Source of the DNA: a candidate division WOR-3 bacterium
GTDB lineage: Bacteria > Hydrothermota > Tepidihabitantia > SM23-42
Direction of reading: 5' to 3'
Assembly (NCBI GenBank): GCA_020349965.1
Contig: CP070705.1
Location: 689,092-753,091 of the forward strand
DNA: 64,000 bases
In this document: positions 28,562 to 42,083 of the stretch, piece by piece
How positions within the stretch are numbered: the stretch's first letter is position 1
How the letters are laid out: each line of letters starts with the position of its first letter
Notes under the pieces: generated by a model
Database searches by the model: none
The model's input: only the letters and a program-made list of their open reading frames with translations
What the model was told of the DNA's origin: nothing
Translations under genes and position numbers: made by a program

Positions 28562-29919
28562 TGGCAACATCGATTCTAGTCATCGACGATGAAGTATTGA
28601 CCCTGAGCAATCTCAGGCGGGCGTTGACAAAGGAAGGATATGAAGTCATGGTTGCCGACTCGGGGGAAACCGGTATTGAGATCTTCAAGAAGAACCACCC
28701 CAATCTGGTATTGGTAGACCTAATGCTTCCCGGTATCGACGGAATCGAAGTCTTGAAGCAGATAAAGGATCTTGAAGCCAATACCGTCGTCATAATGATC
28801 ACCGCTTACGAGATTATCGAGAAGGCGATCGAAGCCATGAAGCTGGGTGCATATGACTACATGATGAAGCCATTCAAAATAAACGAACTGAAGGCTGGGA
28901 TCGCGCGCGCGCTCGAACTGCAATCGCTGCGGGTAAGGGTATCGGACACGATCGAAACGGAACGCGGCAAATACTACTTCGACAGGATAACCGCCCGGAG
29001 CGGGCTAATGATCGATGCCGTAAGAACAGCCCGGCGGGTGGCGCCACTGGATAGAACTACCATCCTCATCACTGGCGAAAGCGGCGTCGGCAAGGGATTA
29101 TTCGCCCGAGCAGTACACTACAACAGCGGGCGTGCCGAAGCGCAATTCACAGAGCTAAATTGTGCTGCCATACCGGACAATTTACTCGAGAGCGAACTCT
29201 TCGGCTACGAACCCGGGGCTTTCACGGATGCACGTAGACGCAAGATAGGATTGCTGGAAAAAACCGACCGTGGCACCCTGTTTCTTGACGAGATCGCAGA
29301 CATGCCGTTTCCGCTCCAGGCGAAGGTGCTGAAGGTACTTGAGGAGCAATCTTTTTCCCGCCTCGGCGGAACGAATCAAATCACGGTAGACGTCCGCATC
29401 ATCGCTGCCACTAATAAGGACCTGCAGAAGCGGATCGAACAAGGAGACTTCCGGGAAGACCTTTTCTACCGGCTCAATGTGGTACCGATCGCAATACCGC
29501 CGTTGAGAGAGAGAAAGGAAGATATAATACCCCTTGCCCTATCATTCATCGAGGAATTCAATGTCGAGCTCCATCGATCATTCAAGGGTATATCCCCTGA
29601 CGCGGCGCATGCTTTGACCGAATATGACTGGCCTGGGAATGTGCGTGAATTACGCAACATCATCGAAAGAACCATGGCACTTCATCAAGGTGAAGAGATA
29701 CTCGCCGAACATCTCTCTGTAGAGATAACGGCAAGCAGGCACATTGAACCGATTATAAGAGAGCAAAAGAAACAGAACGAATTCACGAGCCTGAAGGAAT
29801 TGGAGGATAGATACATAAGAGAAGTATTGGCCTATACGGAGGGGAATAAATCGAAGGCAGCCGGGATACTGGGCATACATCCCACTTCGCTATTCCGAAG
29901 ACTCAAGAAGAGGAAATAG
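28561..29919 (+). CDS. sigma54-dependent (NtrC-family) response regulator
   Basis: REC (IDDE, DLMLP), GESGVGK, ESELFGYEPGAFTDA, FLDEI, WPGNVREL, Fis-type HTH. Confidence 0.95.
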   Translation: MATSILVIDDEVLTLSNLRRALTKEGYEVMVADSGETGIEIFKKNHPNLVLVDLMLPGIDGIEVLKQIKDLEANTVVIMITAYEIIEKAIEAMKLGAYDYMMKPFKINELKAGIARALELQSLRVRVSDTIETERGKYYFDRITARSGLMIDAVRTARRVAPLDRTTILITGESGVGKGLFARAVHYNSGRAEAQFTELNCAAIPDNLLESELFGYEPGAFTDARRRKIGLLEKTDRGTLFLDEIADMPFPLQAKVLKVLEEQSFSRLGGTNQITVDVRIIAATNKDLQKRIEQGDFREDLFYRLNVVPIAIPPLRERKEDIIPLALSFIEEFNVELHRSFKGISPDAAHALTEYDWPGNVRELRNIIERTMALHQGEEILAEHLSVEITASRHIEPIIREQKKQNEFTSLKELEDRYIREVLAYTEGNKSKAAGILGIHPTSLFRRLKKRK

Positions 29920-30039: not shown

Positions 30040-30055
30040 AGGCACGCTAATTGCA
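30040..30055 (+). promoter_or_regulatory. sigma54 (-24/-12) promoter of gdh
   Basis: AGGCACGCTAATTGCA fits TGGCACG-N4-TTGCW with exact GG-N10-GC spacing, directly downstream of an NtrC-family gene. Confidence 0.8.
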
Positions 30056-30081
30056 CTACCTGATGTAAACGGAGGTTGGTC

Positions 30082-31365
30082 ATGGTGAAATTAAACAACA
30101 CCAAAATTCAAGAGAAGAAATATGATCCATTCATCGAGGCTACGATGCAATATGAAAGGGCCGCTAACTCATTGGATCTGGAATCCTGGATATACAACCG
30201 GTTGAAGTTTCCGGAAAAAGAACTGACCGTACATATGACAATAACACGTGACGACGGTAAAGTAGAGACCTATACAGGCTATCGTGTCCAACATTGCACG
30301 GTCAGGGGGCCAGGTAAAGGAGGAATTCGTTACAGCCCGGACGCTTCACTCAGCGAGTGTAAAGCGCTTGCTGCATGGATGACATGGAAGACTGCAGTAC
30401 TTGATCTACCCCTCGGTGGTGCCAAGGGCGCGGTCATATGTAACCCGCCAGCAATGACCGAAGGCGAGCTCGAAAAACTGACCAAAGAATATACTTATTC
30501 AATTAAAGAGATAATCGGGCCGAACCGTGACATACCGGCGCCGGATGTCTGGACAAATGCCCGAACCATGGCTTGGATTTGTGATGCTTACAGCCGGTAT
30601 GTCGGACATTTTGAACCCGCCGTTGTGACTGGCAAACCCATCGAAATAGGTGGTTCACTCGGTCGCTCCGGAGCAACGGGCTTGGGCATGTACTACTCGT
30701 TGCTCGAAGCCTCTAAGCATCTCGAATACCCGCTTGAGGGCAAACGGGTCGCCATCATCGGATATGGCAATGTCGGCTGTTCTATTGCGGAATTGCTATA
30801 TCCCTACGGATGCAAGATCATTGCGATAACCGACATCTACGGCGGCATATACAACAGAAACGGAATAAACATAACTGAATTGAGTGAATATGTCACCCGG
30901 ACAAAGAGCGTAAGTGGATTCAAAAAATATGATTCGATCACCAATGAAGAATTGCTCCGCCTCAACTGCGACATCCTTCTGCCATGCGCTGTCGAAGGTA
31001 TGATCAATGAAAAGAACGCAGACAAGATAAAAGCAAGGATCGTCTGCGAAGGCGCAAATGGACCTACGACCGCCGATGCAGACGAAATCCTGGTCGAAAA
31101 CGGCGTCTTCATGCTGCCCGATATCCTGGCAAATGCAGGTGGTGTCACCGTTTCGTATCTTGAGTGGATCCAGGATCTGCAAAAGCTTTTCTATAGTGAA
31201 GAAGAGGTAAAGACCAGATGCTGGAAAATGATGCAGAAAGCATTCTGGGATGTCATCCGTGTTGCCGACAAATATAAGACGAACATGCGCCACGCAGCAT
31301 ACATCCTCGCCGTTCAGCGGGTCGCAGATTCTATAAGAATGTTCGGTAAAATCGGCAGGAACTAA
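30082..31365 (+). CDS. gdhA: Glu/Leu/Phe/Val family dehydrogenase (glutamate dehydrogenase)
   Basis: GYRVQH, GPGKGGIR, MTWKTA, GGAKG, DIPAPDV, VTGKP, GYGNVG, EGANGP, PDILANAGGVTVSY. Confidence 0.92.
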   Translation: MVKLNNTKIQEKKYDPFIEATMQYERAANSLDLESWIYNRLKFPEKELTVHMTITRDDGKVETYTGYRVQHCTVRGPGKGGIRYSPDASLSECKALAAWMTWKTAVLDLPLGGAKGAVICNPPAMTEGELEKLTKEYTYSIKEIIGPNRDIPAPDVWTNARTMAWICDAYSRYVGHFEPAVVTGKPIEIGGSLGRSGATGLGMYYSLLEASKHLEYPLEGKRVAIIGYGNVGCSIAELLYPYGCKIIAITDIYGGIYNRNGINITELSEYVTRTKSVSGFKKYDSITNEELLRLNCDILLPCAVEGMINEKNADKIKARIVCEGANGPTTADADEILVENGVFMLPDILANAGGVTVSYLEWIQDLQKLFYSEEEVKTRCWKMMQKAFWDVIRVADKYKTNMRHAAYILAVQRVADSIRMFGKIGRN

Positions 31366-31415: not shown

Positions 31416-31444
31416 CTTGCAGTAAGTACAGAAAGGCACTATGA

Positions 31445-31508
31445 ATGCAAAATGCAATAGCATAACGTGGAAGAAACCTGTTGACTATGGCCCAAATGTA
31501 AGTATAAT
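31445..31508 (+). promoter_or_regulatory. Operator copy plus sigma70-type promoter of the redox operon
   Basis: ATGCAAAATGCAATAG (31445-31460), 15/16 identical to 29986-30001; TTGACT-16-TATAAT at 31481-31508. Confidence 0.65.
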
Positions 31509-31530: not shown

Positions 31531-32031
31531 ATGAAAATCAACGCGAAGGATCTTTCGAGAATAGTTAGCAAATATCACGACGAGAAGTCGTCCCTCATCG
31601 CCGTCCTCCAGGATGTGCAGGAAGAATATCACTGGCTTCCTCCGGAAGCGCTCCGATTTGTCTCAGAAAAACTGTGTATTCCTTTGATCGATGTTTACAG
31701 CGTGGCCACCTTCTACCGTGCATTCAGCCTCACCCCGCGCGGCGAACATGTGGTGACTGTGTGTCTGGGTACAGCATGCCATGTACGCGGAGCGCCGCTC
31801 GTTCTCGACCGCATAAGAAATCGACTGAGAGTTGAACCGGGCTGCACGACAGGTGACGGCAAGTTCACGCTGGAGAGCGTCAACTGCCTGGGCGCTTGCG
31901 CCTTGGCGCCGATCGTTGTCGTCGACGGTAAGTACCATGGTCAGACCACAGTGAAAAAAGCAGCTCAGATTATTGAAGAATACCACACAAAAAGACCGAA
32001 GAAAAGGGTAACTCGCAGAAGAAAAAAGTAG
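31531..32031 (+). CDS. NuoE/HydC-like [2Fe-2S] subunit
   Basis: LIAVLQDVQ, VATFY, CLGTACHVRG, NCLGACALAP; AAGGAG SD. Confidence 0.92.
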   Translation: MKINAKDLSRIVSKYHDEKSSLIAVLQDVQEEYHWLPPEALRFVSEKLCIPLIDVYSVATFYRAFSLTPRGEHVVTVCLGTACHVRGAPLVLDRIRNRLRVEPGCTTGDGKFTLESVNCLGACALAPIVVVDGKYHGQTTVKKAAQIIEEYHTKRPKKRVTRRRKK

Positions 32032-32034
32032 GAC

Positions 32035-32424
32035 ATGACCCTATCCCAAATAAGAATCCTGCTCGACGCAGAATTCATCTGTGAACACGGAATGCAAAAC
32101 TCCGACATAAAATATGCTAAAGCATCGGACCTCATGAGCGATGTCCTTGCATTCTCTGAACCGTTTTCCGACCGCAACACAATCCTCATAACCGGGCTCA
32201 CCAACAAACAGGTCATCAGAACATGCGAAATCGCCGGGGTAGGAGCTATTATTTTCGTGCGCGGCAAGAATCCATCGACCGAAACCATTGAACTTGCCCA
32301 TCAATGCAAAATAACACTACTCACGACGAAGTTGAAGATGTTTGAAACTTGTGGAATTCTCTATACAAACGGCATAACTGGTGTAGCACCCGGCACACAT
32401 GGGAATCCATCAGATGCAACCTGA
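32035..32424 (+). CDS. DRTGG domain protein
   Basis: SDLMSDVL, LITGL, IIFVRGK. Confidence 0.85.
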   Translation: MTLSQIRILLDAEFICEHGMQNSDIKYAKASDLMSDVLAFSEPFSDRNTILITGLTNKQVIRTCEIAGVGAIIFVRGKNPSTETIELAHQCKITLLTTKLKMFETCGILYTNGITGVAPGTHGNPSDAT

Positions 32425-32863
32425 AGCACTCTTGCAGAAAGAATTCGCGATTCAGGGCGGCGATTTTGTGAATGCCGGAGAATCATCGTGCATGATAAGA
32501 AACACGCTACGTGAGATCGGGGTCGACAGTGATATCGTTCGGCGCATGGCAATTGCCGCATACGAAGCAGAGATGAACGTTGTCATGTATGCTCTGCACG
32601 GCACAATGCAAATAAGCGTCTACCGCGATGAAATCCTTCTGACAATCGCCGATAAAGGGCCGGGCATACAGGATATCGAAATGGCAATGCAACCCGGATT
32701 CTCCACGGCGACCGAGGAAATGCGCGAAATGGGATTCGGCGCCGGCATGGGTTTGCCCAACATAAAGAAGAACGCAGATGTTTTCAACATAACATCACGT
32801 GTCGGTAACGGCACGAAGCTCGAAATCCGGATATTCCTCGATGGAAAAAAGACCAGAAAGTAG
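32414..32863 (+). CDS. Anti-sigma-factor-type Ser/Thr kinase (HATPase_c)
   Basis: AAYEAEMNVV, DKGPGI, GFST, GFGAGMGLPN. Confidence 0.88.
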   Translation: MQPEALLQKEFAIQGGDFVNAGESSCMIRNTLREIGVDSDIVRRMAIAAYEAEMNVVMYALHGTMQISVYRDEILLTIADKGPGIQDIEMAMQPGFSTATEEMREMGFGAGMGLPNIKKNADVFNITSRVGNGTKLEIRIFLDGKKTRK

Positions 32864-34148
32864 TTTCATTCATTCAATAAAGGTCGACGATGCAACATGC
32901 ATCGGATGTGTTGCGTGTATGAAGGTCTGTCCTACTAAGGCGATACGGCTACGCGGCGGGAAAGCACATATCAACTACGAACGATGTATCGATTGCGGCG
33001 GTTGTTTGCGAATCTGCCCGCACCATGCCGTCGTACCGGTCACCACATCACCATCCGATCTCAATCGATTCAAATATAGAATCGCATTGCCCTCACCAGT
33101 CGTCTATTCGCAGTTCGGCAGCACGGTAATGCCCAATGAAATTCTCACGATTCTGACCGAGATCGGATTCGACCATGTATACGACGAAGCCCTCGTCTGC
33201 GAGATGGCGAGCATTGCGATCGAGGAATATCTCGACGAGAACAAATCACCCAGGCCTATAATATCGTCCACTTGCCCGGTTGTCGTAAGGCTAATCCAGA
33301 GGCTCTTTCCCACTCTCTGCAAGAACATCTTGCCGTTGGAACCGCCTCGCGAAATAGCTGCCAAGAACTTACGTTCCGAAGTCACGAGAGAAAAGAAAAT
33401 AGCGCCTGACGAGATCGGCATCATCGATATCACTCCATGCTCTGCAAGGATGGTCTCGATATGCCACCCCGAGACGATGGAGAAGTCGAACCTCGACGGG
33501 GCGATCCCGATCAAAGATATCTACAACAAAGTCATGCTGAGACTCAAACGCAGCATGCCGATGGTCATGATGCAGAGCCAGACACGGATCAGCGGCATCG
33601 GTATTGGTTGGGCGATCGAGGGCGGCGAGATAAGGGGGCTTAAATACACGAATTCCGTTTCCGTTTCTGGAGTGCTTAATACAATACGCCTCCTTCAGGA
33701 CGTAGAGTCAGGTCGCCTGAAGAACATCGAATACCTCGAGTGCTTGATATGTCCTGATGGATGCATAGGCGGCCCGCTCACCGTAGAAAATCGATTCATT
33801 GCGAAGAGCAATGTCTTGCGCCTCATACGGCACTTCGGCGGCAAGAAAAGAGTCAATGTAGATATGGTCAAGAAACTCTACAGGGAGAATTTCTTCTCCT
33901 TCAAATGGGCTGTTGAGCCAAAGTCGTTTCCTCCTCTTGACAAGGACAGGAACGTGGCGATTCTGAAGCTCAAGCAGAAAGAGGAATTGCTGAAAAGACT
34001 CCCGGGCACCGATTGCGGCGTTTGCGGTGCTCCGGACTGCAAAACTCTTGCCGAAGACATTGTACGGGGTGAATCAAAGATCGAGAATTGCATATACATC
34101 AAAAAGAAACCATCAAGTGAAATGAAAAATACTGGAGATAAAAAATGA
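32841..34148 (+). CDS. [FeFe]-hydrogenase-like sensory protein (group D/HfsB-like): 2x[4Fe-4S], degenerate H-domain, C-terminal FeS domain
   Basis: CIGCVACMKVCP, CIDCGGCLRICP; SSTCP, ITPCSAR, CLICPDGCIGG; LPGTDCGVCGAPDC. Confidence 0.82.
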   Translation: MEKRPESSFIHSIKVDDATCIGCVACMKVCPTKAIRLRGGKAHINYERCIDCGGCLRICPHHAVVPVTTSPSDLNRFKYRIALPSPVVYSQFGSTVMPNEILTILTEIGFDHVYDEALVCEMASIAIEEYLDENKSPRPIISSTCPVVVRLIQRLFPTLCKNILPLEPPREIAAKNLRSEVTREKKIAPDEIGIIDITPCSARMVSICHPETMEKSNLDGAIPIKDIYNKVMLRLKRSMPMVMMQSQTRISGIGIGWAIEGGEIRGLKYTNSVSVSGVLNTIRLLQDVESGRLKNIEYLECLICPDGCIGGPLTVENRFIAKSNVLRLIRHFGGKKRVNVDMVKKLYRENFFSFKWAVEPKSFPPLDKDRNVAILKLKQKEELLKRLPGTDCGVCGAPDCKTLAEDIVRGESKIENCIYIKKKPSSEMKNTGDKK

Positions 34149-34489
34149 AAATTCGAGAAATCGTGAAAGCATACGATCTCCATTTACTGACTGGGGAAAA
34201 AATGCAGGACCGCGAAATAACCGGAGGCTATGTCAGTGACCTGCTCAGCGATGTCATGGCTCACTGCAAGAAGGGAGCCATCTGGATCACGCTCCAGGCA
34301 CATCCGAATATCGTCGCGGTTGCCGTACTCAAAGAAATCTCGGGTATCATAATCGTTAATGGCCGCAAGCCGGAAAAAGATACGATCACAAAAGCCGAGA
34401 CCGAAAGCGTCGCCATCATGAGCACTGAACGCTCGGCCTTCGATGTGGCTGGACAACTGTACGGCATGGGCTTACGTGGAACGCGTTGA
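34145..34489 (+). CDS. DRTGG domain protein
   Basis: GYVSDLLSDVM, WITLQAHPNIVAVA. Confidence 0.85.
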   Translation: MKIREIVKAYDLHLLTGEKMQDREITGGYVSDLLSDVMAHCKKGAIWITLQAHPNIVAVAVLKEISGIIIVNGRKPEKDTITKAETESVAIMSTERSAFDVAGQLYGMGLRGTR

Positions 34490-35235
34490 TGTTGAAATGT
34501 CATCAAGTGGACCTTCACATACACTCTTGTCTGTCTCCATGCGCCGATTTGATGATGTCACCCAAGAGAATAGTCCGGGCCGCTATCGCTAAACAACTCG
34601 ACATGATAGCATTGTGCGACCATAATTCCGCAGAGAACATCGAAGCCACCATGGCCGTGGCACGTAACACGAGATTAACAGTTCTGCCTGGCATGGAAGT
34701 AACCAGTTCAGAAGAAGTCCATGTATGTGGCATCTTCAGAGATGCGGACGCGACTTTGACCCTACAGGAATTGGTGTACAGGGAACTTGCCCCGGGCGAG
34801 AACGACGCAGCACTTTTTGGCGACCAGATCATCGTCAATGAATTTGACGAGGTCGAAGGCTACAACCGACGGTTATTGATTGGAGCCACCAATCTATCAG
34901 TGGAAGAAGTTGTGGCCGAAATCCACCGTCTTGGTGGTCTGGCCATAGCATGCCATGTCGACCGCCAGGCGTATAGCATCATCGAACAACTGGGATTCAT
35001 CCCGAAAGATCTCCAACTGGACGCACTGGAAATATCTGCTGCAACCACATTTGACCAGGCCGTGAAGCGGATACCGCAATTAACAGAATACTCTGTCGTA
35101 TCATCTTCCGACGCCCACAGCCTCGATGAAATTGGAAAGATTGCGACTTCTCTCAACATCGAAAAGCTAGACTTCGACGAGCTACGCCAAGCATTGCGCC
35201 GCGAAAATGGGCGGAGCATATCCCTCAGGGGTTAG
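34489..35235 (+). CDS. PHP domain phosphoesterase
   Basis: DLHIHSCLSPC, LCDHN, PGMEV, EEVH, ACHVDR, SSDAH. Confidence 0.9.
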   Translation: MLKCHQVDLHIHSCLSPCADLMMSPKRIVRAAIAKQLDMIALCDHNSAENIEATMAVARNTRLTVLPGMEVTSSEEVHVCGIFRDADATLTLQELVYRELAPGENDAALFGDQIIVNEFDEVEGYNRRLLIGATNLSVEEVVAEIHRLGGLAIACHVDRQAYSIIEQLGFIPKDLQLDALEISAATTFDQAVKRIPQLTEYSVVSSSDAHSLDEIGKIATSLNIEKLDFDELRQALRRENGRSISLRG

Positions 35236-35237
35236 GT

Positions 35238-35795
35238 GTGGATGATTTATCATTGCATGTCCTCGATATCATTGAAAATGCGGTTACAGCAGGCGCCACG
35301 AATGTTGAGGTCCGGATCACTGACGACGAAAGGCAAAATCTCTTTATGATCGAGATCGCAGACAACGGCAGGGGCATGGACAAAGAAACGTTGAAAAAGG
35401 CAATCGATCCCTTTTACACGACAAAAACCGTCCGCAAGGTAGGACTGGGTCTTTCTATGCTGGCTCAAGCCGCAAAAGAAGCCGGGGGCAAATTCGGGGT
35501 ACAATCACAACCGGGCAGAGGTACCAAGATTCATGCACATTTCCTACACGACCATATTGACCGGAAGCCGTTAGGCGATATGGCCGAGACGATCGCAGCT
35601 TTCATCGCAGGCAACGGCGAGAAAGTAGATCTTACTTATCATCACCGTAAGGGTGATCAGGAGTTTTTCTTTTGCACCACAGAAATAAAAAAGGTGCTCG
35701 AAGAAATCACAATTTGCCACCCCGAGGTCATTTCCTTTATCAAAAGAGAAATCCGGGATGGTTTGAAATCAATTTCCAAAAGGAGCAAAATATGA
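35238..35795 (+). CDS. Stand-alone HATPase_c (kinase-like) protein
   Basis: LDIIENA, DNGRGM, DPFYTT, GLGL, DRKPLGD. Confidence 0.85.
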   Translation: MDDLSLHVLDIIENAVTAGATNVEVRITDDERQNLFMIEIADNGRGMDKETLKKAIDPFYTTKTVRKVGLGLSMLAQAAKEAGGKFGVQSQPGRGTKIHAHFLHDHIDRKPLGDMAETIAAFIAGNGEKVDLTYHHRKGDQEFFFCTTEIKKVLEEITICHPEVISFIKREIRDGLKSISKRSKI

Positions 35796-36175
35796 AGAAA
35801 TTAAAGATCGGTGACCTTGCCAAGATACGCGACAAGGTGAGAAAAACTGCGGTACTGCGGCAAGGCAAAGCAAGGGCAAAGATAACAGTCCATATGGGAA
35901 CCTGCGGCATTGCGGCCGGCGCTCGTGACATACTTTCCGGCCTGCTCGAGGATATCAAGTCAAAGAAACTAAACGACGTCATCGTAACCACCTCAGGCTG
36001 TGCTGGGCTCTGTAGTAGGGAGCCTATGGCAACAGTCGAGATCACCGGAAAACCTCCGGTCAAATACGTTGATCTGACAACTGAAAAAATGAAAAAAATC
36101 CTCAGCCAGCACGTAATCAAGGGTACTATAGTCAACGAATACGCTCTTGCCATCGGCAGCGAAAGGACACATTGA
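35792..36175 (+). CDS. Thioredoxin-like [2Fe-2S] ferredoxin (HndB/HydD-like)
   Basis: HMGTCGIAAGA, SGCAGLCSREP; AAGGAG SD. Confidence 0.85.
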   Translation: MKKLKIGDLAKIRDKVRKTAVLRQGKARAKITVHMGTCGIAAGARDILSGLLEDIKSKKLNDVIVTTSGCAGLCSREPMATVEITGKPPVKYVDLTTEKMKKILSQHVIKGTIVNEYALAIGSERTH

Positions 36176-36223
36176 CGCCGAACGCTAGACGCCATATGCA
36201 TAGAGCGTCACGCGTTGTGCGTA
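36174..36223. repeat. Inverted 7-mer repeat element, empty form
   Basis: 3x RACGCNN, palindrome TATGCATA, 3x NNGCGTH. Confidence 0.75.
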
Positions 36224-36239
36224 GATCAAGGAGGTTAGT

Positions 36240-39200
36240 TTGAAAGACTTTCGAATGCACTTGCTCGTGTGTGCGGGAACAGGTTGTGTTGCGGCAGGAT
36301 CTTTTGATATCAAGAAGGCACTCGAAAAAGAGATCATCAAGAAAAAACTGCAGAACGAAGTGACGGTCATTGCGACCGGCTGTAATGGATTCTGCGAAAG
36401 AGGGCCCATCGTGGTCGTTCAGCCCGACGGCGTGTTCTATCAACGGTTGAAGACGGATGACATACCTCACCTCGTCGAAGAACACCTGCTTAAAGGGCGG
36501 CCCGTCAAGGACCTGATGTATGTTCCTCCGGCCGAAGCAAAACCAGTGCCGAGGATGATGGACATCAGATTTTTCAAACACCAGCGACTAATCGTGCTTA
36601 AGAACCGCGGACGCATCGATCCAGAAAATATCGACGAATATATCGCATTTGACGGATACCGCGCACTTGAAAAGGCACTGACCGACATGAAACCGGATGA
36701 CATCATCCGTGAAGTCAAGGCATCGGGACTCAGAGGTCGCGGTGGCGCCGGCTTTCCGACCGGCTTGAAGTGGGAATTATGCGGGAAGGTACAGAACGGC
36801 CCGAAGTATGTAGTCTGCAATGCTGATGAGGGCGACCCCGGTGCATTTATGGATCGCAGCATCCTCGAAGCGGACCCCCATGCCGTCCTTGAAGGAATGA
36901 TTCTCGGCGCGAGGGCGATCGGTGCTGGAAAAGGTTTCATCTATGTTCGCACCGAATATCCGCTCGCCCTGCAGAGAATAAAGATCGCAATCGAACAAGC
37001 CGAGAAATACGGCTTGCTTGGCAAGAACATACTCGACTCCGGATTCGACTTCTCGATTGAGGTCAAACGTGGTGCCGGTGCATTCGTCTCCGGCGAAGAA
37101 ACGTCATTATTGGCGGCGATCGAAGGCAAGATTGGCATTCCCAAGCAACGTCCCCCCTACCCGGTGCAGAAAGGACTGTGGAAGAGACCGACCAATATCA
37201 ACAACGTCGAGACGTGGGCAAACGTGCCCCATATCATACTTCGCGGCGCACACTGGTACTCTGAGATAGGAACCGAAGGCAGCAAAGGAACGAAAATTTT
37301 CTCCCTCGTCGGGAAAATAAACAACACCGGACTCGTTGAAGTACCCATGGGCATTACCATGAAAGATATCATATACGAAATCGGCGGCGGCATCCCCGGC
37401 AATAAGCAGATAAAAGCTGTTCAGACCGGGGGTCCATCAGGCGGCTGTATACCCAAGCAAATGCTCGATCTGCCAATCGACTATGAAAGCCTTAAAGGAG
37501 CAGGATCCATGATGGGGAGCGGCGGAATGATCGTCATGGATGAAGATACCTGTATGGTCGATGTTGCAAAATATTTCATGAATTTTCTACGAGACGAATC
37601 ATGCGGCAAATGCCTGTCGTGCCGTGAGGGTACGCAAAGAATATGGGAAATCCTTGACCGTATAACAAAAGGGAAAGGCAAACCGGACGACATCTCCCTG
37701 CTCAGAGAGTTGGCCACCGCAACAAAGGACGCATCGATGTGCGGCCTCGGACAGACTGCTGCAAATCCGGTAATGAGCACGCTCAACTATTTTGCCGATG
37801 AGTACGAAGCACATATCAAGTACAAGAAGTGCTCTGCCGCCGTGTGCAAGCAGATAATCTCTTCACCATGCCAGCATACATGTCCGATCGCCACCGAAGC
37901 CCCCCAGTACATCGCATACCTCGCACATGGCGAGTTCGAAAAAGCATACGAAATCATCTTGAAGGATAACCCGCTACTCAATGTCTGCGCGCGCGTCTGC
38001 CACCACCCGTGTGAGATCAAGTGCCGCGCCGGTCAGGGCGGAAGACCGATTGCCATCCGTGCACTCAAACGCGCTGCCATCGAGTACAGCAATGGCAGGA
38101 AACGTAAGAAACCACGGATTGCGACCGGTCCGAAAGTCGCAATCATAGGTTCAGGACCGTCAGGACTCATGGCTGGGTTCGCGCTTGCCCAAGAAGGTTG
38201 TGCGCCGACGATCTTCGAAGCCCTACCCGTCGCCGGCGGCATGCTCGCAGTCGGCATACCGGCATATCGTCTACCGAGAAAGGCACTCGAAGAGGACATC
38301 AAACGCGTGATCAATGCCGGCGTCGAGATAAAAACGAACCAGAAACTGGGTAGAGACTTCACTCTTGAACGACTTAGAGACCAGGGTTACAAGGCAGTGT
38401 ACATAAGCATCGGCGCGCATAGGAGCATCAAGCTCGGCATCCCCAATGAGGAATCCACTGGTGTGATACCAGCAATGCACTTTCTGACACAGGTCAGCCT
38501 TGGCAAGAAGGTCGTCGTTGGTCAGAGGGTCGGAGTGATCGGCGGGGGCAACTCTGCGGTCGACGCCGCCCGGGTGGCGAACCGCCTGCGCAATGTCCAA
38601 AAAGTCACCATCATATACCGAAGAACAAGAAATGAAATGCCTGCGTATGCCGAGGAGATCGAATGCGCACTCGAAGAAGGTATAGACATCCTGTTTCTGA
38701 CCGCACCGACCGAAGTTATCACCAGAGACGGTTGCATAACCGGGGTCAGGTGCATGAAGATGCAGCTCGGGTCCGTCGAGAAAGATGGCAGGCGGCGGCC
38801 GATTCCGATCAAAGGTTCTGAATTCGTCATCGAACTCGATACACTCATCTCGGCAATCAGCGAACAGCCGGACATCTCTTTTCTCCCAGAAAAACACGAC
38901 TTTAATATTACCGGATGGAATACTTTTGAGGTCGACCGAGAATCACTTGCGACGAACGTGCCGGGGGTATTCGCCGGTGGTGACGCGATACGCGGGCCCA
39001 GTTCGGTCATAGAAGCAATGGCCGACGGCAAACGAGTGGCTGCTGCAATCAGCAGATATCTAAAAAATGAGCCCTTCGAGTACGAATATGAAGTCACCAG
39101 GCCCTCTGTTTATGTCGACCCCGTGAAATTGACGGTCGAAGAGACTCTCGAAAGTACCCGTCAGGAAACGAAGAAGCTAAAATCGGCAGTCCGCCGCAAG

Positions 39201-39311
39201 AGTAATGATGAGGTCGATCTCGGACTGAGTAAGAGTGCCGCAATCAAAGAAGCAAAACGCTGTTTAAGATGCGATCTGGAAGTCAAAGAGGAAGATGAAA
39301 AGGAGCAATAA
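36240..39311 (+). CDS. NuoF/HydB-like NAD(H)-FMN subunit fused to a GltD/NfnB-like FAD-NAD(P)H domain
   Basis: VCAGTGC/GCNGFC [2Fe-2S]; GRGGAGFPTG, NADEGDPGAFMDR, GGPSG, CGKCLSC..CGLG; then PCQHTCP..CARVCHHPCEIKC, GSGPSG, GGGNSA, YRRT, GGDAIRGP, CLRC. Confidence 0.93.
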   Translation: MKDFRMHLLVCAGTGCVAAGSFDIKKALEKEIIKKKLQNEVTVIATGCNGFCERGPIVVVQPDGVFYQRLKTDDIPHLVEEHLLKGRPVKDLMYVPPAEAKPVPRMMDIRFFKHQRLIVLKNRGRIDPENIDEYIAFDGYRALEKALTDMKPDDIIREVKASGLRGRGGAGFPTGLKWELCGKVQNGPKYVVCNADEGDPGAFMDRSILEADPHAVLEGMILGARAIGAGKGFIYVRTEYPLALQRIKIAIEQAEKYGLLGKNILDSGFDFSIEVKRGAGAFVSGEETSLLAAIEGKIGIPKQRPPYPVQKGLWKRPTNINNVETWANVPHIILRGAHWYSEIGTEGSKGTKIFSLVGKINNTGLVEVPMGITMKDIIYEIGGGIPGNKQIKAVQTGGPSGGCIPKQMLDLPIDYESLKGAGSMMGSGGMIVMDEDTCMVDVAKYFMNFLRDESCGKCLSCREGTQRIWEILDRITKGKGKPDDISLLRELATATKDASMCGLGQTAANPVMSTLNYFADEYEAHIKYKKCSAAVCKQIISSPCQHTCPIATEAPQYIAYLAHGEFEKAYEIILKDNPLLNVCARVCHHPCEIKCRAGQGGRPIAIRALKRAAIEYSNGRKRKKPRIATGPKVAIIGSGPSGLMAGFALAQEGCAPTIFEALPVAGGMLAVGIPAYRLPRKALEEDIKRVINAGVEIKTNQKLGRDFTLERLRDQGYKAVYISIGAHRSIKLGIPNEESTGVIPAMHFLTQVSLGKKVVVGQRVGVIGGGNSAVDAARVANRLRNVQKVTIIYRRTRNEMPAYAEEIECALEEGIDILFLTAPTEVITRDGCITGVRCMKMQLGSVEKDGRRRPIPIKGSEFVIELDTLISAISEQPDISFLPEKHDFNITGWNTFEVDRESLATNVPGVFAGGDAIRGPSSVIEAMADGKRVAAAISRYLKNEPFEYEYEVTRPSVYVDPVKLTVEETLESTRQETKKLKSAVRRKSNDEVDLGLSKSAAIKEAKRCLRCDLEVKEEDEKEQ

Positions 39312-40051
39312 TGGTAAGTCTTATTTTAAACGGACTTGAAGTTCAGGCCGAAGAAGGTTCAACGGTCCTCGAAACGTGCAGGTTCTACGGAATTGAGATA
39401 CCTACACTCTGCTACAACGAAGGGCTCCAGCCGTACGGGGGGTGCCGCCTCTGTTTGGTTGAGATCGGAACCGGAGATAATAGCAAACTGGTCAGCTCAT
39501 GTACGTATCCGGTCGAAGAAGGGCTGAACGTTCGTACCAATACCAAACGAGTCGTCAGTGCACGCAAGATGATGATCGAACTACTCGTTTCGGTATGCCC
39601 GCAGTCAAAGACCATCCAGGATCTGGCATCGAAATACCACGTTACGCAAGTGCGTTTTCCGGCTCGTAATGACGACTGTATCCTGTGTGGTCTTTGTGTA
39701 AGGATGTGCAAGGAACAGATGCAATCCGGTGCAATCGGCTTCACCGAACGCGGATTCAAGAAGAAGATCGTCACGCCATTCAACGCCAGGTCAGAGCAGT
39801 GCCGTTTGTGCGGCGGCTGTATCTACGTCTGCCCTGCTTGCCAGATGAGATGCCAAGGTCCGGATGCTCCAACCGACCTTTGCAGCGGGTGCCTATCACT
39901 GGAGCCTTCCTGCATTCAGACGCATGACGACTACCAGTGCTGGATGGGCACAACTGGCGACTGCGGGACCTGTGAAGGACGGCCGGATCAAAGGACGCGA
40001 GACGCAAAACGCTCGACGCCCAACGCAAAAAATAATGCATCGAGTAAATGA
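39311..40051 (+). CDS. NuoG/HydA N-terminal-like FeS protein without catalytic domain
   Basis: PTLC..GGCRLC..SC [2Fe-2S]; CILCGLCVRMC and CRLCGGCIYVCP; 8 further C-terminal Cys. Confidence 0.85.
   Translation: MVSLILNGLEVQAEEGSTVLETCRFYGIEIPTLCYNEGLQPYGGCRLCLVEIGTGDNSKLVSSCTYPVEEGLNVRTNTKRVVSARKMMIELLVSVCPQSKTIQDLASKYHVTQVRFPARNDDCILCGLCVRMCKEQMQSGAIGFTERGFKKKIVTPFNARSEQCRLCGGCIYVCPACQMRCQGPDAPTDLCSGCLSLEPSCIQTHDDYQCWMGTTGDCGTCEGRPDQRTRDAKRSTPNAKNNASSK
39994..40028 (+). repeat. Tandem 7-mer array (left arm)
   Basis: GACGCGA GACGCAA AACGCTC GACGCCC AACGCAA. Confidence 0.8.
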
Positions 40052-40072
40052 ATGCATCAAAAGGGCCAAATC

Positions 40073-40483
40073 ATGTATTCTTTTGAGAAATTAGAAATAT
40101 GGCAGCTATCATTGGATCTTGCAGAGAAGATATGTCAGATGTCTACGGAATTACCTGATGACGGAAAATTCGGATTAATAAGCAAACTTAAGAGAGCATC
40201 GGTGTCTATAACTCTCAATATTGCAGAAGGAAGAGGGTCTGACAGCGATGCAGAGTTCAGGAGATTTCTGGGAATTGCCCTCAAATCATTGATTGAGGTT
40301 GTCGCCTGTCTGAAAATCTGTGAGAGGCTGCAATCCCTTGACCAAACGATTGTATCAGATACATGTGCATTTTGTGATAAGATTGAAGCAAAGATTCGAA
40401 AATTTAGAAACGCGCTCAGTGCCGGACGAAACACACACAAAGCAAAACGCGTTAGGCGTAAGGCGTCGAGCGTAAAGCGTTAA
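40073..40483 (+). CDS. Four-helix-bundle protein (23S rRNA IVS / TIGR02436-like family)
   Basis: FEKLEIWQ, KFGLISKLKRASVSITLNIAEG, FRRFLGIALKSLIEV. Confidence 0.9.
   Translation: MYSFEKLEIWQLSLDLAEKICQMSTELPDDGKFGLISKLKRASVSITLNIAEGRGSDSDAEFRRFLGIALKSLIEVVACLKICERLQSLDQTIVSDTCAFCDKIEAKIRKFRNALSAGRNTHKAKRVRRKASSVKR
40447..40481 (+). repeat. Tandem 7-mer array (right arm, inverted relative to left)
   Basis: ACGCGTT AGGCGTA AGGCGTC GAGCGTA AAGCGTT. Confidence 0.8.
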
Positions 40484-40499: not shown

Positions 40500-42083
40500 A
40501 TGCCCTCATTATCAAGAATGAATGCCTCTGCGGCAACATTAACAAAGAATAGAACAGAAGATTCGATCGTACCATTGAGTGGAATGTGCGTTACCTGTGT
40601 TGATGGGTGTATCGGCATGTGTGAGATCGGCAAGTCGGCGTACCGCGGCCATGAGGTGATCTACCCACAGCCCTTCGGCATCCTGACTGCGGCATCTGAA
40701 AAGAACTATCCGGTGGATTATTCTCACTTCAATATCATGGGCACGGCAGTAGGCGCCATTGGAGTCGATGCCGATCCAGACAAAGCGATATTCCCGAACG
40801 TCATGATCGAGCAGAAGATCGGCGCGAACAGCGATATCAAGCTTAAGTTCCCAATGGTCGTCCCGGGACTAGGGTCGACGAATGTCGCCAAGAATAACTG
40901 GGAAGGATTGGCGATCGGTACCGCATTATCAGGAGCCATGTTGACGATCGGTGAGAACGTCGTTGCAATGGACATGAAGAGTGAGATCAAGGGCGGCAAG
41001 ATACTCAGAGCACCGGATCTTGAACATCGCGTGAAATTGTATAAAGACTGGCAGCAGGACGGGTACGGCATGATCATCGTTCAAGCCAATGTCGAGGATA
41101 CCCGTCTGGGTGTACAGGAATTCGCCATTCAGAAATTGGGTGTTGAGACGGTCGAGTTGAAATGGGGACAGGGTGCAAAAGACATCGGCGGCGAAGTGAA
41201 GGTCAAAGACCTCAAGAAAGCACAGGAACTTCGGAAGCGTGGATATGTCGTGCTTCCCGATCCATTAGATCCTGATGTTATCGAAGCCTTTGAGCACAAA
41301 ACATTTACCGAGTTCGAAAGGCATTCCAGGATAGGAATGGTTGACGAAGAATCCTTCATGAAGCGGGTTGAAGAACTGCGCAACGCAGGCGCCAAGCATG
41401 TATTCCTGAAGACCGGCGCTTATCGACCTGCAGATCTGGCACGAGCGGTCAAGTACTCATCAAGAGCAAAGATCGATCTACTCACAATTGACGGTGCAGG
41501 CGGCGGAACGGGCATGAGTCCGTGGCATATGATGAACGAATGGGGTATGCCTCCGGTTGAGATCCATTCCCTGGCATTCTGCTACACCGACAAGCTAGCC
41601 AAGAAAGGCGAATATGTTCCCTCGCTGGCATTTGCCGGCGGCATCGCCTTTGAAGACCAGATCTTCAAGGCGCTTGCCTTAGGAGCTCCTTACACGAAGA
41701 TCGTCGGAATGGCCAGGGGCCCTCTGTGTGCAGCAATGGTCGGAAAGACCATCGGCAAGAAGATCGATGAAGGTGAAATACCGGTGTTCGTCGAGCGTTT
41801 CGGAAACAAGAAAGAGGAAATCTTCGTTACTGCGTCAAAGCTTAAGAAGGAATTGGGTAAGGATTTCGACAGAGTGCCACCAGGTGCACTGGGCGTCTAC
41901 ACCTACGTGGAGAGAATGGCACAAGGGTTGAAACAGCTGATGACCGGTAACCGGAAGTTCGCGTTGAAATACATCACGCGAGATGACATCGCCTCGCTCA
42001 CCAAAGATGCAGCGAATATATCCGGGATTCCTTATGTTATGGACGTGGATAAAGACGAGGTCGAGAAAATACTGAATGGATAA
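40500..42083 (+). CDS. Stand-alone FMN-binding glutamate-synthase-family protein
   Basis: ELKWGQGAK, TIDGAGGGTGMSP, AGGIAFEDQIFKALALGA match the GltS FMN barrel; N-terminal CVTCVDGCIGMC; AAGGAG SD. Confidence 0.85.
   Translation: MPSLSRMNASAATLTKNRTEDSIVPLSGMCVTCVDGCIGMCEIGKSAYRGHEVIYPQPFGILTAASEKNYPVDYSHFNIMGTAVGAIGVDADPDKAIFPNVMIEQKIGANSDIKLKFPMVVPGLGSTNVAKNNWEGLAIGTALSGAMLTIGENVVAMDMKSEIKGGKILRAPDLEHRVKLYKDWQQDGYGMIIVQANVEDTRLGVQEFAIQKLGVETVELKWGQGAKDIGGEVKVKDLKKAQELRKRGYVVLPDPLDPDVIEAFEHKTFTEFERHSRIGMVDEESFMKRVEELRNAGAKHVFLKTGAYRPADLARAVKYSSRAKIDLLTIDGAGGGTGMSPWHMMNEWGMPPVEIHSLAFCYTDKLAKKGEYVPSLAFAGGIAFEDQIFKALALGAPYTKIVGMARGPLCAAMVGKTIGKKIDEGEIPVFVERFGNKKEEIFVTASKLKKELGKDFDRVPPGALGVYTYVERMAQGLKQLMTGNRKFALKYITRDDIASLTKDAANISGIPYVMDVDKDEVEKILNG

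Follow-up and report, generated by a model that had tools for sequence, protein, structure and literature searches.

Introduction

Schut et al. 2022 define BfuB, the HydB-type subunit of Bfu enzymes, by a 4Fe-4S ferredoxin domain (IPR017896; PMC9304861), the seat of clusters B3 and B4. The mechanism by which these enzymes bifurcate electrons, and the contribution made by the branch running through B3/B4 and ferredoxin, are debated (PMC11829005, PMC12018979). Here we describe a gene from a 64,000-nucleotide stretch of a candidate division WOR-3 genome (assembly GCA_020349965.1, contig CP070705.1, positions 689,092 to 753,091; hereafter "the window") that encodes a complete HydB/BfuB core joined, in the place of the ferredoxin domain, to a FAD module of the GltD/NfnL type.

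The closest described systems are the Stn/NfnABC transhydrogenases (S. ovata, 8oh5; C. saccharolyticus, 9bov and 9bp5; T. sibiricus, 9n5u). Like the complex encoded in the window, they are built on a HydC- and HydB-type core and combine a NAD(H)/FMN and a NADP(H)/FAD centre in one enzyme; their FAD module is of the same permuted form, with the conserved Lys ligand, the Arg residue, the YRR triplet and the C-terminal RCLxC motif. In Stn/NfnABC, however, the module lies within subunit A, between the [2Fe-2S] domain and the NuoG/Fdh-like one, where it feeds the A3-A2-A1-B1 chain, whereas subunit B retains B3/B4 and reduces ferredoxin. Here the module is carried by subunit B and takes the place of B3/B4, subunit A is a short stub having neither A3 nor the Fdh-like domain, and an FMN-barrel subunit is added. 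A complex with both centres was already known from Stn/NfnABC; what is new is the position of the module on the B subunit, where it replaces B3/B4.

Other known systems match the locus in part. The HydB subunits of bifurcating hydrogenases (A. mobile NiFe-HydABCSL, 7t2r; the FeFe-HydABC enzymes of A. woodii, T. kivui and T. maritima) have B5, FMN, B1 and the Zn/B2 site in common with the fusion, and their operons contain the same HydS/DRTGG/PHP/HATPase accessory genes. The fusion differs from them in lacking B3/B4, and its operon in lacking a hydrogenase subunit, although a 51%-identical fusion (P0242, see below) does partner HydA. WorABCSL, the type-2 Bfu tungsten aldehyde oxidoreductase of A. 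mobile (9mqx), likewise has a short BfuA stub (WorA, 247 aa) and places catalysis on additional subunit(s), but WorB has a ferredoxin tail, the partner is WorSL instead of an FMN barrel, and there is no NADP(H) module. The HydB of archaeal group F hybrid [FeFe]/[NiFe] hydrogenases is also a fusion of NuoF-like and glutamate-synthase-small-subunit-like parts, the latter termed "GltA domain" (Greening et al. 2024, PMC11216029). It differs in being hydrogenase-linked and modelled only, with the domain read as a likely ferredoxin site; neither permutation nor tail exchange was described. Finally, GltD and the NfnL subunit of NfnSL have the same Fer4_20 + FAD + NADPH fold in un-permuted form, and the N-terminal CxxCx4Cx3CP order of canonical GltD is not kept in the permuted fusion. 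NfnL further differs in its Glu cluster ligand (Lys610 in the fusion), its bifurcating FAD and its NfnS partner, while GltD pairs with a full GltB (amidotransferase, FMN and GXGXG domains), where the locus described here has only a divergent FMN-domain protein.

Results

A complete HydB core ends at the boundary of the ferredoxin domain

The fusion gene (36240..39311, forward strand) is a single uninterrupted frame of 1023 aa with a TTG start codon, preceded at 6 nt by a GGAGG Shine-Dalgarno sequence (36229-36233). A complete HydB/BfuB core, equipped with [2Fe-2S], the FMN/NADH site, cluster B1 and the Zn/B2 site, occupies residues 1-540, and a GltD/NfnL-type FAD module occupies residues 541-1012. 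The chain begins with a thioredoxin-like [2Fe-2S] domain, B5 (36252..36482; Pfam PF01257, residues 5-81), whose cysteines C11, C16, C48 and C52 lie in the motifs CAGTGC (11-16) and CNGFC (48-52). The NuoF core follows (36714..37814), comprising the FMN/NADH site, the SLBB domain and the B1 [4Fe-4S] cluster (Pfam PF01512, Complex1_51K, 159-331; PF10531, SLBB, 354-402; PF10589, NADH_4Fe-4S, 441-525). Its FMN/NADH site has the motifs GRGGAGF (166-172) and DEGDPGAF (196-203); GGPSG (397-401), CMVD (438-441), CGKCLSC (455-461) and MCGLG (500-504) follow, the B1 ligands being C455, C458, C461 and C501. The last element in common with HydB is H525-x5-C531-x4-C536 (37812..37847), which together with C438 makes up the B2/Zn site and at which the alignments to 7t2r_B and 7q4v_B stop. 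In the second half of the chain, Pfam identifies Fer4_20 (531-618) and Pyr_redox_2 (632-930; two Rossmann domains, for FAD and NAD(P)H).

Residues 4-541 align with A. mobile NiFe-HydB (7t2r_B) end to end and with no notable gaps (E 2e-233), and also with A. woodii HydB (7q4v_B), WorB (9mqx_B) and NfnB (9n5u_B and 9bov_B), all of them flavoprotein subunits from enzymes proven to bifurcate. The HydB half is 55-65% identical to the solved bifurcating HydB/NfnB/WorB chains, WorB being its best structural match (TMt 0.82, rmsd 2.1). At the junction, the fusion reads AHIKYKKC531SAAVC536KQII where A. mobile HydB has AHIKDKRCPAKICPALIK. The first Cys of the module (C544) comes 7 residues after C536, as compared with 12 for the first B3/B4 Cys of A. 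woodii HydB. Since homology to HydB stops just past the Zn/B2 ligands and the Cys residues of the module start at once, the swap falls exactly at the domain boundary. No Fer4-type 2x[4Fe-4S] tail (B3/B4) is detected by Pfam in the fusion; Fer4_20 and Pyr_redox_2 stand in its place. A first-pass annotation of this DNA, made from the letters alone, had proposed that the C-terminal 2x[4Fe-4S] domain of HydB was replaced. The lack of a Fer4 match and the end of the HydB alignment at residue 541 confirm this. The motifs listed in that annotation (HydB core, FAD site, second dinucleotide site, YRR) all lie at the expected positions, and domains and motifs bear out its view that a single chain combines a NAD(H)/FMN centre with a second centre for FAD and a dinucleotide.

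When compared with the description of BfuB, the fusion has a NuoF-type FMN/NADH domain with B1, the B5 domain and the Cys/His/Cys/Cys B2 (Zn) site, and is encoded together with HydC (BfuC) and a BfuA bearing the A1 [2Fe-2S] cluster, an association kept in 60+ loci. What it lacks is the C-terminal 2x[4Fe-4S] ferredoxin domain (B3/B4; IPR017896). The AlphaFold2 model of the protein has a pLDDT of 84.6 and a pTM of 0.76; a Foldseek search found no solved chain spanning both halves (TMq <=0.51). Across 43 homologous fusions, the most distant at 50% identity, all the predicted ligands of the core are invariant (C438/H525/C531/C536 and C455/C458/C461/C501), and so are the module residues C544/C548/C587/C591/C595, K610, R677, Y793-R794-R795 and C1008/C1011.

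The GltD-type module is circularly permuted

Residues 542-1012 align with residues 102-567 of C. saccharolyticus NfnA (9bov_A) with an E value of 4e-108, and the module also aligns to T. sibiricus NfnA and S. ovata StnC. Matches to NfnL (E about 1e-82), GltD (about 1e-62) and dihydropyrimidine dehydrogenase (DPD) are weaker. In GltD, NfnL and DPD, the canonical cluster motif is EAxRCLxC-x4-C-x3-CP. The fusion carries this motif split, as do NfnA and StnC: its second half opens the module, while the first half (EAKRC1008LRC1011D) forms the extreme C-terminus. In the native order, the Fer4_20 match covers profile positions 19-109 only. A test construct was made in which residues 970-1012 were moved ahead of residues 541-969. 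The un-permuted sequence aligns contiguously with residues 9-462 of T. maritima NfnB (4ylf_B; EAQRCLQCPTHPCVSGCP), and its E value to 4ylf_B is 1.5e-89, against 8.9e-82 in the native order. Un-permuting also lifts the Fer4_20 score, from 75.4 to 98.8 bits, and extends profile coverage from 19-109 to 2-109. These alignments show the module to be circularly permuted in the same manner as StnC/NfnA of the Stn/NfnABC transhydrogenases. A plain end-to-end fusion of a canonical gltD/nfnB gene was considered and ruled out, as un-permuting restores both the contiguous alignment and the full Fer4_20 match.

The permuted module starts with SSPC544QHTC548P, followed by C583, C587, C591, C595 and Lys610 (37860..38093); the Fer4_20 match and the alignments to the C. 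saccharolyticus and S. ovata proteins predict two [4Fe-4S] clusters in this segment. The FAD (GSGPSG, 637-642) and NADP(H) (GGGNSA, 768-773; Y793-R794-R795) Rossmann domains come next (38133..39029; Pfam PF07992 and alignments), and the C-terminal tail (39210..39275) consists of a helix (998-1006) and EAKRC1008LRC1011D, the part of the Fer4_20 motif that canonical proteins have first. The counterparts of C1008 and C1011 in T. maritima NfnB are C39 and C42, which are ligands of the distal cluster (PMC7596348); the C-terminal CxxC would thus complete this partner-facing cluster and set it beside the Zn site, next to the junction. AlphaFold2 gives pLDDT values of 88-93 over residues 991-1010, with disorder only past C1011, and such confident modelling of the C-terminus fits an integrated tail. 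That the C-terminal CxxC might be a vestige was ruled out, the motif being invariant in homologues and confidently modelled. The first-pass annotation had spoken of a whole GltD/NfnB domain: the module is indeed there, but it is permuted, and the part that C1008/C1011 play in the Fer4_20 motif had been overlooked.

The module bears the signature of a NADP(H) site of the StnC/NfnA type

Y793-R794-R795 align exactly to Y310-R311-R312 of T. maritima NfnB, residues that hold the 2′-phosphate of NADPH (Demmer 2015, cited in PMC7596348). Whether DsrL has or lacks YRR goes with its measured specificity for NADP(H) or NAD(H) (PMC7596348). Moreover, the nearest characterised modules (C. saccharolyticus NfnA, T. 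sibiricus NfnA and S. ovata StnC) are NADPH sites. The earlier interpretation of YRR as a NADP(H)-type signature thus finds support both in the alignment with the NfnB 2′-phosphate pocket and in the nature of these relatives. We infer from the sequence that the module holds its cofactors and uses NADP(H).

Two further residues inform on the type of flavin site. K610 corresponds to K170 of S. ovata StnC, a cluster ligand, and R677 to StnC R239; both StnC residues have been tested by mutagenesis in S. ovata (PMC10482914). A Lys cluster ligand marks the non-bifurcating NfnA/StnC type, NfnL having Glu (PMC12018979), and the FAD of StnC/NfnA-type modules has been shown to be non-bifurcating (PMC10482914, PMC12018979). 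These data bear on the idea that the module serves as a ferredoxin dock, its distal cluster passing electrons to soluble ferredoxin, or else as a self-bifurcating, NfnL-like FAD unit that would make the enzyme doubly bifurcating. In NfnSL, homologous clusters do lead low-potential electrons to ferredoxin (PMC8097209), Greening et al. 2024 placed a likely ferredoxin site in the GltA domain of a fused HydB (PMC11216029), and R677 is the equivalent of NfnL R201; yet the FAD-proximal cluster has the Lys ligand (K610) of non-bifurcating NfnA/StnC and not the Glu of NfnL, the equivalent Arg in StnC and NfnA is too distant from N5, the FAD being a simple transfer flavin, and in a pure ferredoxin dock the intact, invariant YRR/GGGNSA NADP(H) site would be pointless. 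On balance, either role appears improbable. The double-bifurcating unit suggested by the first-pass annotation is unlikely because the module, permuted and with Lys610 where NfnL has Glu, is of the StnC/NfnA type, whose FAD does not bifurcate.

The ferredoxin tail and the GltD module exchange repeatedly in one operon family

A scan based on alignment of the FMN-barrel protein, with one genome per species, identified at least 589 stretches encoding a relative, and the best 80 loci were analysed. These span Stahlbacteria, WOR-3, Aminicenantes, Zixibacteria, Ignavibacteria, KSB1, Latescibacterota, Planctomycetota, Cloacimonadota, Acidobacteriota and others. Tail type was scored at the 65 loci where the sequence directly upstream of the stub and the FMN protein shows how the HydB gene ends: HydB is fused to GltD in 44 and carries the classical 2x[4Fe-4S] tail in the remaining 21.

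The two forms occur in otherwise equivalent settings. An Aminicenantes-type locus with a ferredoxin-tail HydB of 617 aa (L009) and a fused Aminicenantes locus (L003) have the same gene neighbourhood: both are flanked by Peptidase_M1, AdoMet_dc, AsnC and GlnA at one end and by Peptidase_M50, an aminoacyl-tRNA synthetase, ScpA/B, GGT and DUF6305 at the other. Their stubs are 73% and their FMN proteins 81% identical, and neither protein co-varies with tail type. The ferredoxin-tail HydB from Edwardsbacteria is 72.7% and 76.7% identical to two fused proteins that are themselves 63.2% identical to each other. When tail state is mapped onto a maximum-likelihood tree built from 64 HydB cores, 15 changes are required, at least 10 of them being forced by branches with SH-aLRT values of 95 or above. 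When the labels were shuffled on this tree, a mean of 19.0 changes was obtained, and 10 of 500 shuffles needed as few as 15. Sister pairs with opposite tails include L022/L075 (support 95), L027/L034 (95) and L030/L078 (99). The GltD modules of the operon family form one group relative to a hydrogenase-linked fusion and largely track the clades of the core (clade C with 100% support). This suggests that co-inheritance of the module prevailed, accompanied by repeated replacement or recombination, as opposed to many captures from outside. The notion that the tail sits where the ferredoxin-exit domain belongs, already present in the first-pass annotation, is strengthened by this repeated exchange with that very domain. 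In Aminicenantes CS1-C017 (L072, 2403-11575), HydC, HydB::GltD, HydC, a ferredoxin-tail HydB, two stubs and an FMN barrel are arranged in tandem.

The fusion is widespread in databases and patchy among close relatives

Searches of NCBI, JGI, ENA and Logan assemblies returned more than 120 full-length proteins of the same architecture and length, with 62-97% identity, the named ones being labelled candidate division WOR-3, Stahlbacteria, Aminicenantes or Gemmatimonadota. A profile-free search of 1.8 billion representatives added about a dozen NuoF-GltD clusters (at 50% identity), down to 34% identity, all of them with the same junction (H-x5-C-x4-C, a few residues, PC-x3-CP) and the C-terminal EAxRCLRC. 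The >120 homologues and the divergent clusters bear out the architecture proposed at the outset. Joining of adjacent hydB and gltD-like genes by a sequencing or assembly error can be dismissed almost entirely: no point was found in its favour, the frame is uninterrupted and preceded by a strong Shine-Dalgarno sequence, the host genome consists of one contig of 2.30 Mb, the full-length homologues are independent, species genomes contain 44 further fused loci, and the permuted module could not function as a separate canonical gene. We regard an assembly or frameshift artefact as ruled out by the comparative data.

Two relatives stand outside the operon family. In P0242, the fusion (51% identical) is encoded in a HydC - HydB::GltD - HydA operon, with HydA containing Fe_hyd_lg_C and Fe_hyd_SSU; in P0244, it is encoded beside HydC and a NuoG-like protein. 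Service of a P0242-type fusion to a true [FeFe]-hydrogenase points to the tail as a general output module of BfuB. Five divergent NuoF-GltD fusions (P0249, P0262, P0282, P0309 and P0332) have a degenerate NuoF half, with no GRGGAGF loop and no B1 CxxCxxC, and bear extra ferredoxin-type Cys motifs past RCLRCD. This set seems to put the NuoF-GltD scaffold to another use, perhaps one without flavin.

Within a sample of the host phylum, full-length fusions are found in 8 of 61 genomes, and one genome of the host's own family lacks the fusion; hence the distribution is patchy.

The fusion is encoded with HydC, a short BfuA and a divergent FMN barrel

The genes for HydC, the signalling set, the small ferredoxin, the stub, the FMN barrel and glutamate dehydrogenase described below lie on the forward strand. 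HydC/BfuC (31531..32031), a NuoE-like protein with the C1 [2Fe-2S] cluster, matches Pfam PF01257 (E 1e-50) and has HydC chains of bifurcating enzymes as its best PDB matches; its frame is open from 31441 but homologues begin near 31531. It is followed by an accessory signalling set (32035..35795), composed, according to Pfam, of DRTGG, HATPase, a HydS-like Fe_hyd_lg_C protein, DRTGG, PHP and HATPase. Sets of this DRTGG/HATPase/HydS-like/PHP kind are known from hydrogenase operons; here, the set is present in the WOR-3 and Aminicenantes loci and not in the Gemmatimonadota locus. Next lies a small thioredoxin-like [2Fe-2S] ferredoxin of 127 aa (35792..36175) that follows clade A of the HydB core, not tail type. 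Between its stop codon and the Shine-Dalgarno sequence of the fusion there is an imperfect short palindromic repeat (gacgccgaacgctagacgccatatgcatagagcgtcacgcgttgtgcgt; 36174-36223).

Downstream, the start of the type-2 BfuA stub (39311..40051, 246 aa; Pfam Fer2_4 and Fer4_7) overlaps the stop codon of the fusion. The stub comprises the [2Fe-2S] A1 domain, two ferredoxin-type [4Fe-4S] clusters and a Cys-rich tail, and its best PDB match is WorA (9mqx_A) of the type-2 Bfu enzyme WorABCSL (E 2.6e-38). The His-ligated A3 motif (HxxxCxxCx5C) and a molybdopterin-like domain were looked for in the stub and are absent. A gene for a 23S_rRNA_IVP four-helix bundle (40052-40483) lies between the stub and the FMN-barrel gene; the WOR-3 and Edwardsbacteria loci (L001/L002, L008) have it in this position, the Aminicenantes and Gemmatimonadota loci do not.

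The catalytic partner would be a 527-aa FMN (beta/alpha)8 barrel (40500..42083) with a partial match to Glu_synthase (PF01645, profile positions 185-308 only). The protein is very conserved: across phyla, homologues down to rank 120 keep at least 73% identity. Its N-terminal C30-x2-C33-x3-C37-x3-C41 motif is invariant. No sequence match to it was found in PDB or NCBIfam. Foldseek relates it to IDI-2, flavocytochrome b2, lactate/glycolate oxidases and IMPDH (TMq <=0.40), using a model with pLDDT 68 overall and <50 at the N-terminus. Probably, this FMN/Fe-S barrel is distantly related to the FMN domain of glutamate synthase (GltB), with a substrate linked to 2-oxoglutarate, ammonia or glutamate.

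A glutamate dehydrogenase (GDH) gene lies directly upstream of the operon (30076..31365), and about 15 of 80 related loci have GDH no more than 10 kb away. A sigma-54-like GG-N10-GC site (AGGCACGCTAATTGCA, 1 mismatch; 30040-30055) precedes it, 20 nt ahead of its start, and a second such site (31434-31449, 2 mismatches) lies ~80 nt ahead of the likely true hydC start. Across the whole window, sigma-54-like matches show no enrichment. A dCache histidine kinase (26351-28561) and a sigma-54 response regulator (28561-29919) are encoded upstream of both sites. The order HydC - HydB::GltD - stub - FMN protein is conserved in WOR-3, Aminicenantes and Gemmatimonadota contigs, in which GDH or glutamine synthetase, together with an AsnC-type regulator, adjoins the operon.

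From this gene content, the fusion chain is best described as one subunit of a four- to five-subunit complex and not a stand-alone enzyme. The intramolecular transhydrogenase envisaged by the first-pass annotation holds insofar as the two centres share one chain; the chain, however, is not self-contained, being always encoded with HydC, the BfuA stub and the FMN protein (HydA in a relative). In one 5.2-Mb chromosome (L007, GCA_020349005), neither HydB nor HydC is encoded within 8 kb of the stub and the FMN barrel; the catalytic pair may therefore also take other electron donors.

Related genes elsewhere in the host genome

The host genome, a single contig and 97.9% complete, has one glutamine synthetase and two GDH-like genes. 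GATase_2 (PF00310) and GXGXG (PF01493) domains are found nowhere in it, and no Glu_synthase protein other than the divergent 527-aa FMN barrel scores above cut-off. A true glutamine-dependent glutamate synthase was ruled out, given the absence of GATase_2 and GXGXG from the genome.

A second Bfu-type locus (L093; C1:756000-771000, minus strand) lies ~8-15 kb past the end of the window. It encodes a HydC of 154 aa, a ferredoxin-tail HydB of 610 aa that is 72.5% identical to the core of the fusion, and a NuoG/Fdh-like protein of 725 aa, directly followed by a canonical, un-permuted pair of NfnS-like (274 aa) and NfnL-like (469 aa) proteins. This HydB paralogue could recombine with the fusion gene. 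Permuted-type GltD modules are also found at C1:1815363-1816751 (46% identical) and C1:1410544-1411947 (41%), matching through the C-terminal CxxC. They sit in open frames of 1236 and 1409 aa, which probably encode multidomain proteins of the NfnA/StnC-like or Fdh-like type.

Discussion

The HydB core of the fusion retains all that makes up the [B1-FMN-C1] bifurcation site, together with the Zn hinge. On the sequence evidence, the likeliest reading, to which we give an even chance, is that the GltD module replaces "B3/B4 + ferredoxin", with NADP(H) as the low-potential partner of the complex. As a built-in substitute for B3/B4 and soluble ferredoxin, the module would take low-potential electrons from the C1 side through its two clusters to FAD and on to NADP(H), and the complex would carry out a ferredoxin-free reaction that couples NAD(H), NADP(H) and the FMN-barrel substrate. 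We infer this electron path, the coupling or bifurcation and the third substrate. More tentatively, the fusion may define a ferredoxin-free branch of Bfu enzymes in which [B1-FMN-C1] splits or merges electrons between NADH (high-potential), NADPH (low-potential, through the FAD module) and a third substrate; the latter may here be that of the glutamate-synthase-like FMN barrel and, in relatives, H2. If so, sister pairs differing only in the tail would amount to isogenic "switches" of the coupling partner.

Several considerations weigh against this proposal. The searched full-text literature holds no biochemical characterisation of any HydB::GltD member. FAD/NADP(H) is a two-electron couple at roughly -320 to -380 mV, much less reducing than ferredoxin, and the energetics of bifurcation would consequently hinge on the third substrate. 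For the latter, the link of the FMN barrel to glutamate is made of the partial Pfam match and the gene neighbourhood, the fold search giving generic FMN barrels. The closest relatives of the module (NfnA/StnC) are a mid-potential NADPH input via subunit A and not a low-potential exit. Furthermore, the S. wolfei HydB without B3/B4 is non-bifurcating, as cited in PMC11406978, which leaves room for simple non-coupled electron transfer.

These last two facts speak for a different wiring, patterned on Stn and devoid of bifurcation, where the GltD module would be a second entry (NADPH -> FAD -> 2x[4Fe-4S]) into the NADH/FMN chain. The complex would then be a dual NADH/NADPH, ferredoxin-independent reductase of the FMN-barrel substrate, or a plain NADH:NADP+ transhydrogenase. 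We consider this arrangement, the main rival, less likely, even though an FAD of the StnC type is a plain, non-bifurcating transfer flavin and the operon encodes every cofactor of the Stn path but A3. The missing A3 is precisely the acceptor of module electrons in NfnABC, where the route is A7-A6-A3-A2-A1-B1 (PMC12018979), and a stub lacking it argues against Stn-like docking of the module on subunit A. Nor does the stub vary with tail type. In addition, the module is joined 7 residues past the Zn site, on the B3/B4 side, its repeated swap with the ferredoxin tail speaks for equivalence to the ferredoxin branch as opposed to an input on the A side, and a simple diaphorase would not need HydC, B5 and the Zn hinge.

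In the searched full-text literature, a HydB-GltD-type fusion is mentioned only for the modelled archaeal hybrid hydrogenase (PMC11216029). The survey of Bfu enzymes (PMC9304861) makes no mention of glutamate-synthase-like parts or fusions; because it required a 4Fe-4S ferredoxin domain in BfuB, the fusion branch was left out. Public annotations label these proteins "NuoF", "hydrogenase" or "FAD-dependent oxidoreductase".

If the NADP(H)/FAD module does replace the ferredoxin branch, both substrates would be optically trackable and ferredoxin unnecessary. Complexes with a ferredoxin tail and with a NADPH tail would provide natural matched pairs that are otherwise near-identical. At least 589 species-representative genomes, from many uncultured phyla, contain the partner operon. 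The fusion may represent a new route by which anaerobes obtain NADPH or balance NADH and NADPH, tied to nitrogen and amino-acid metabolism or to H2.

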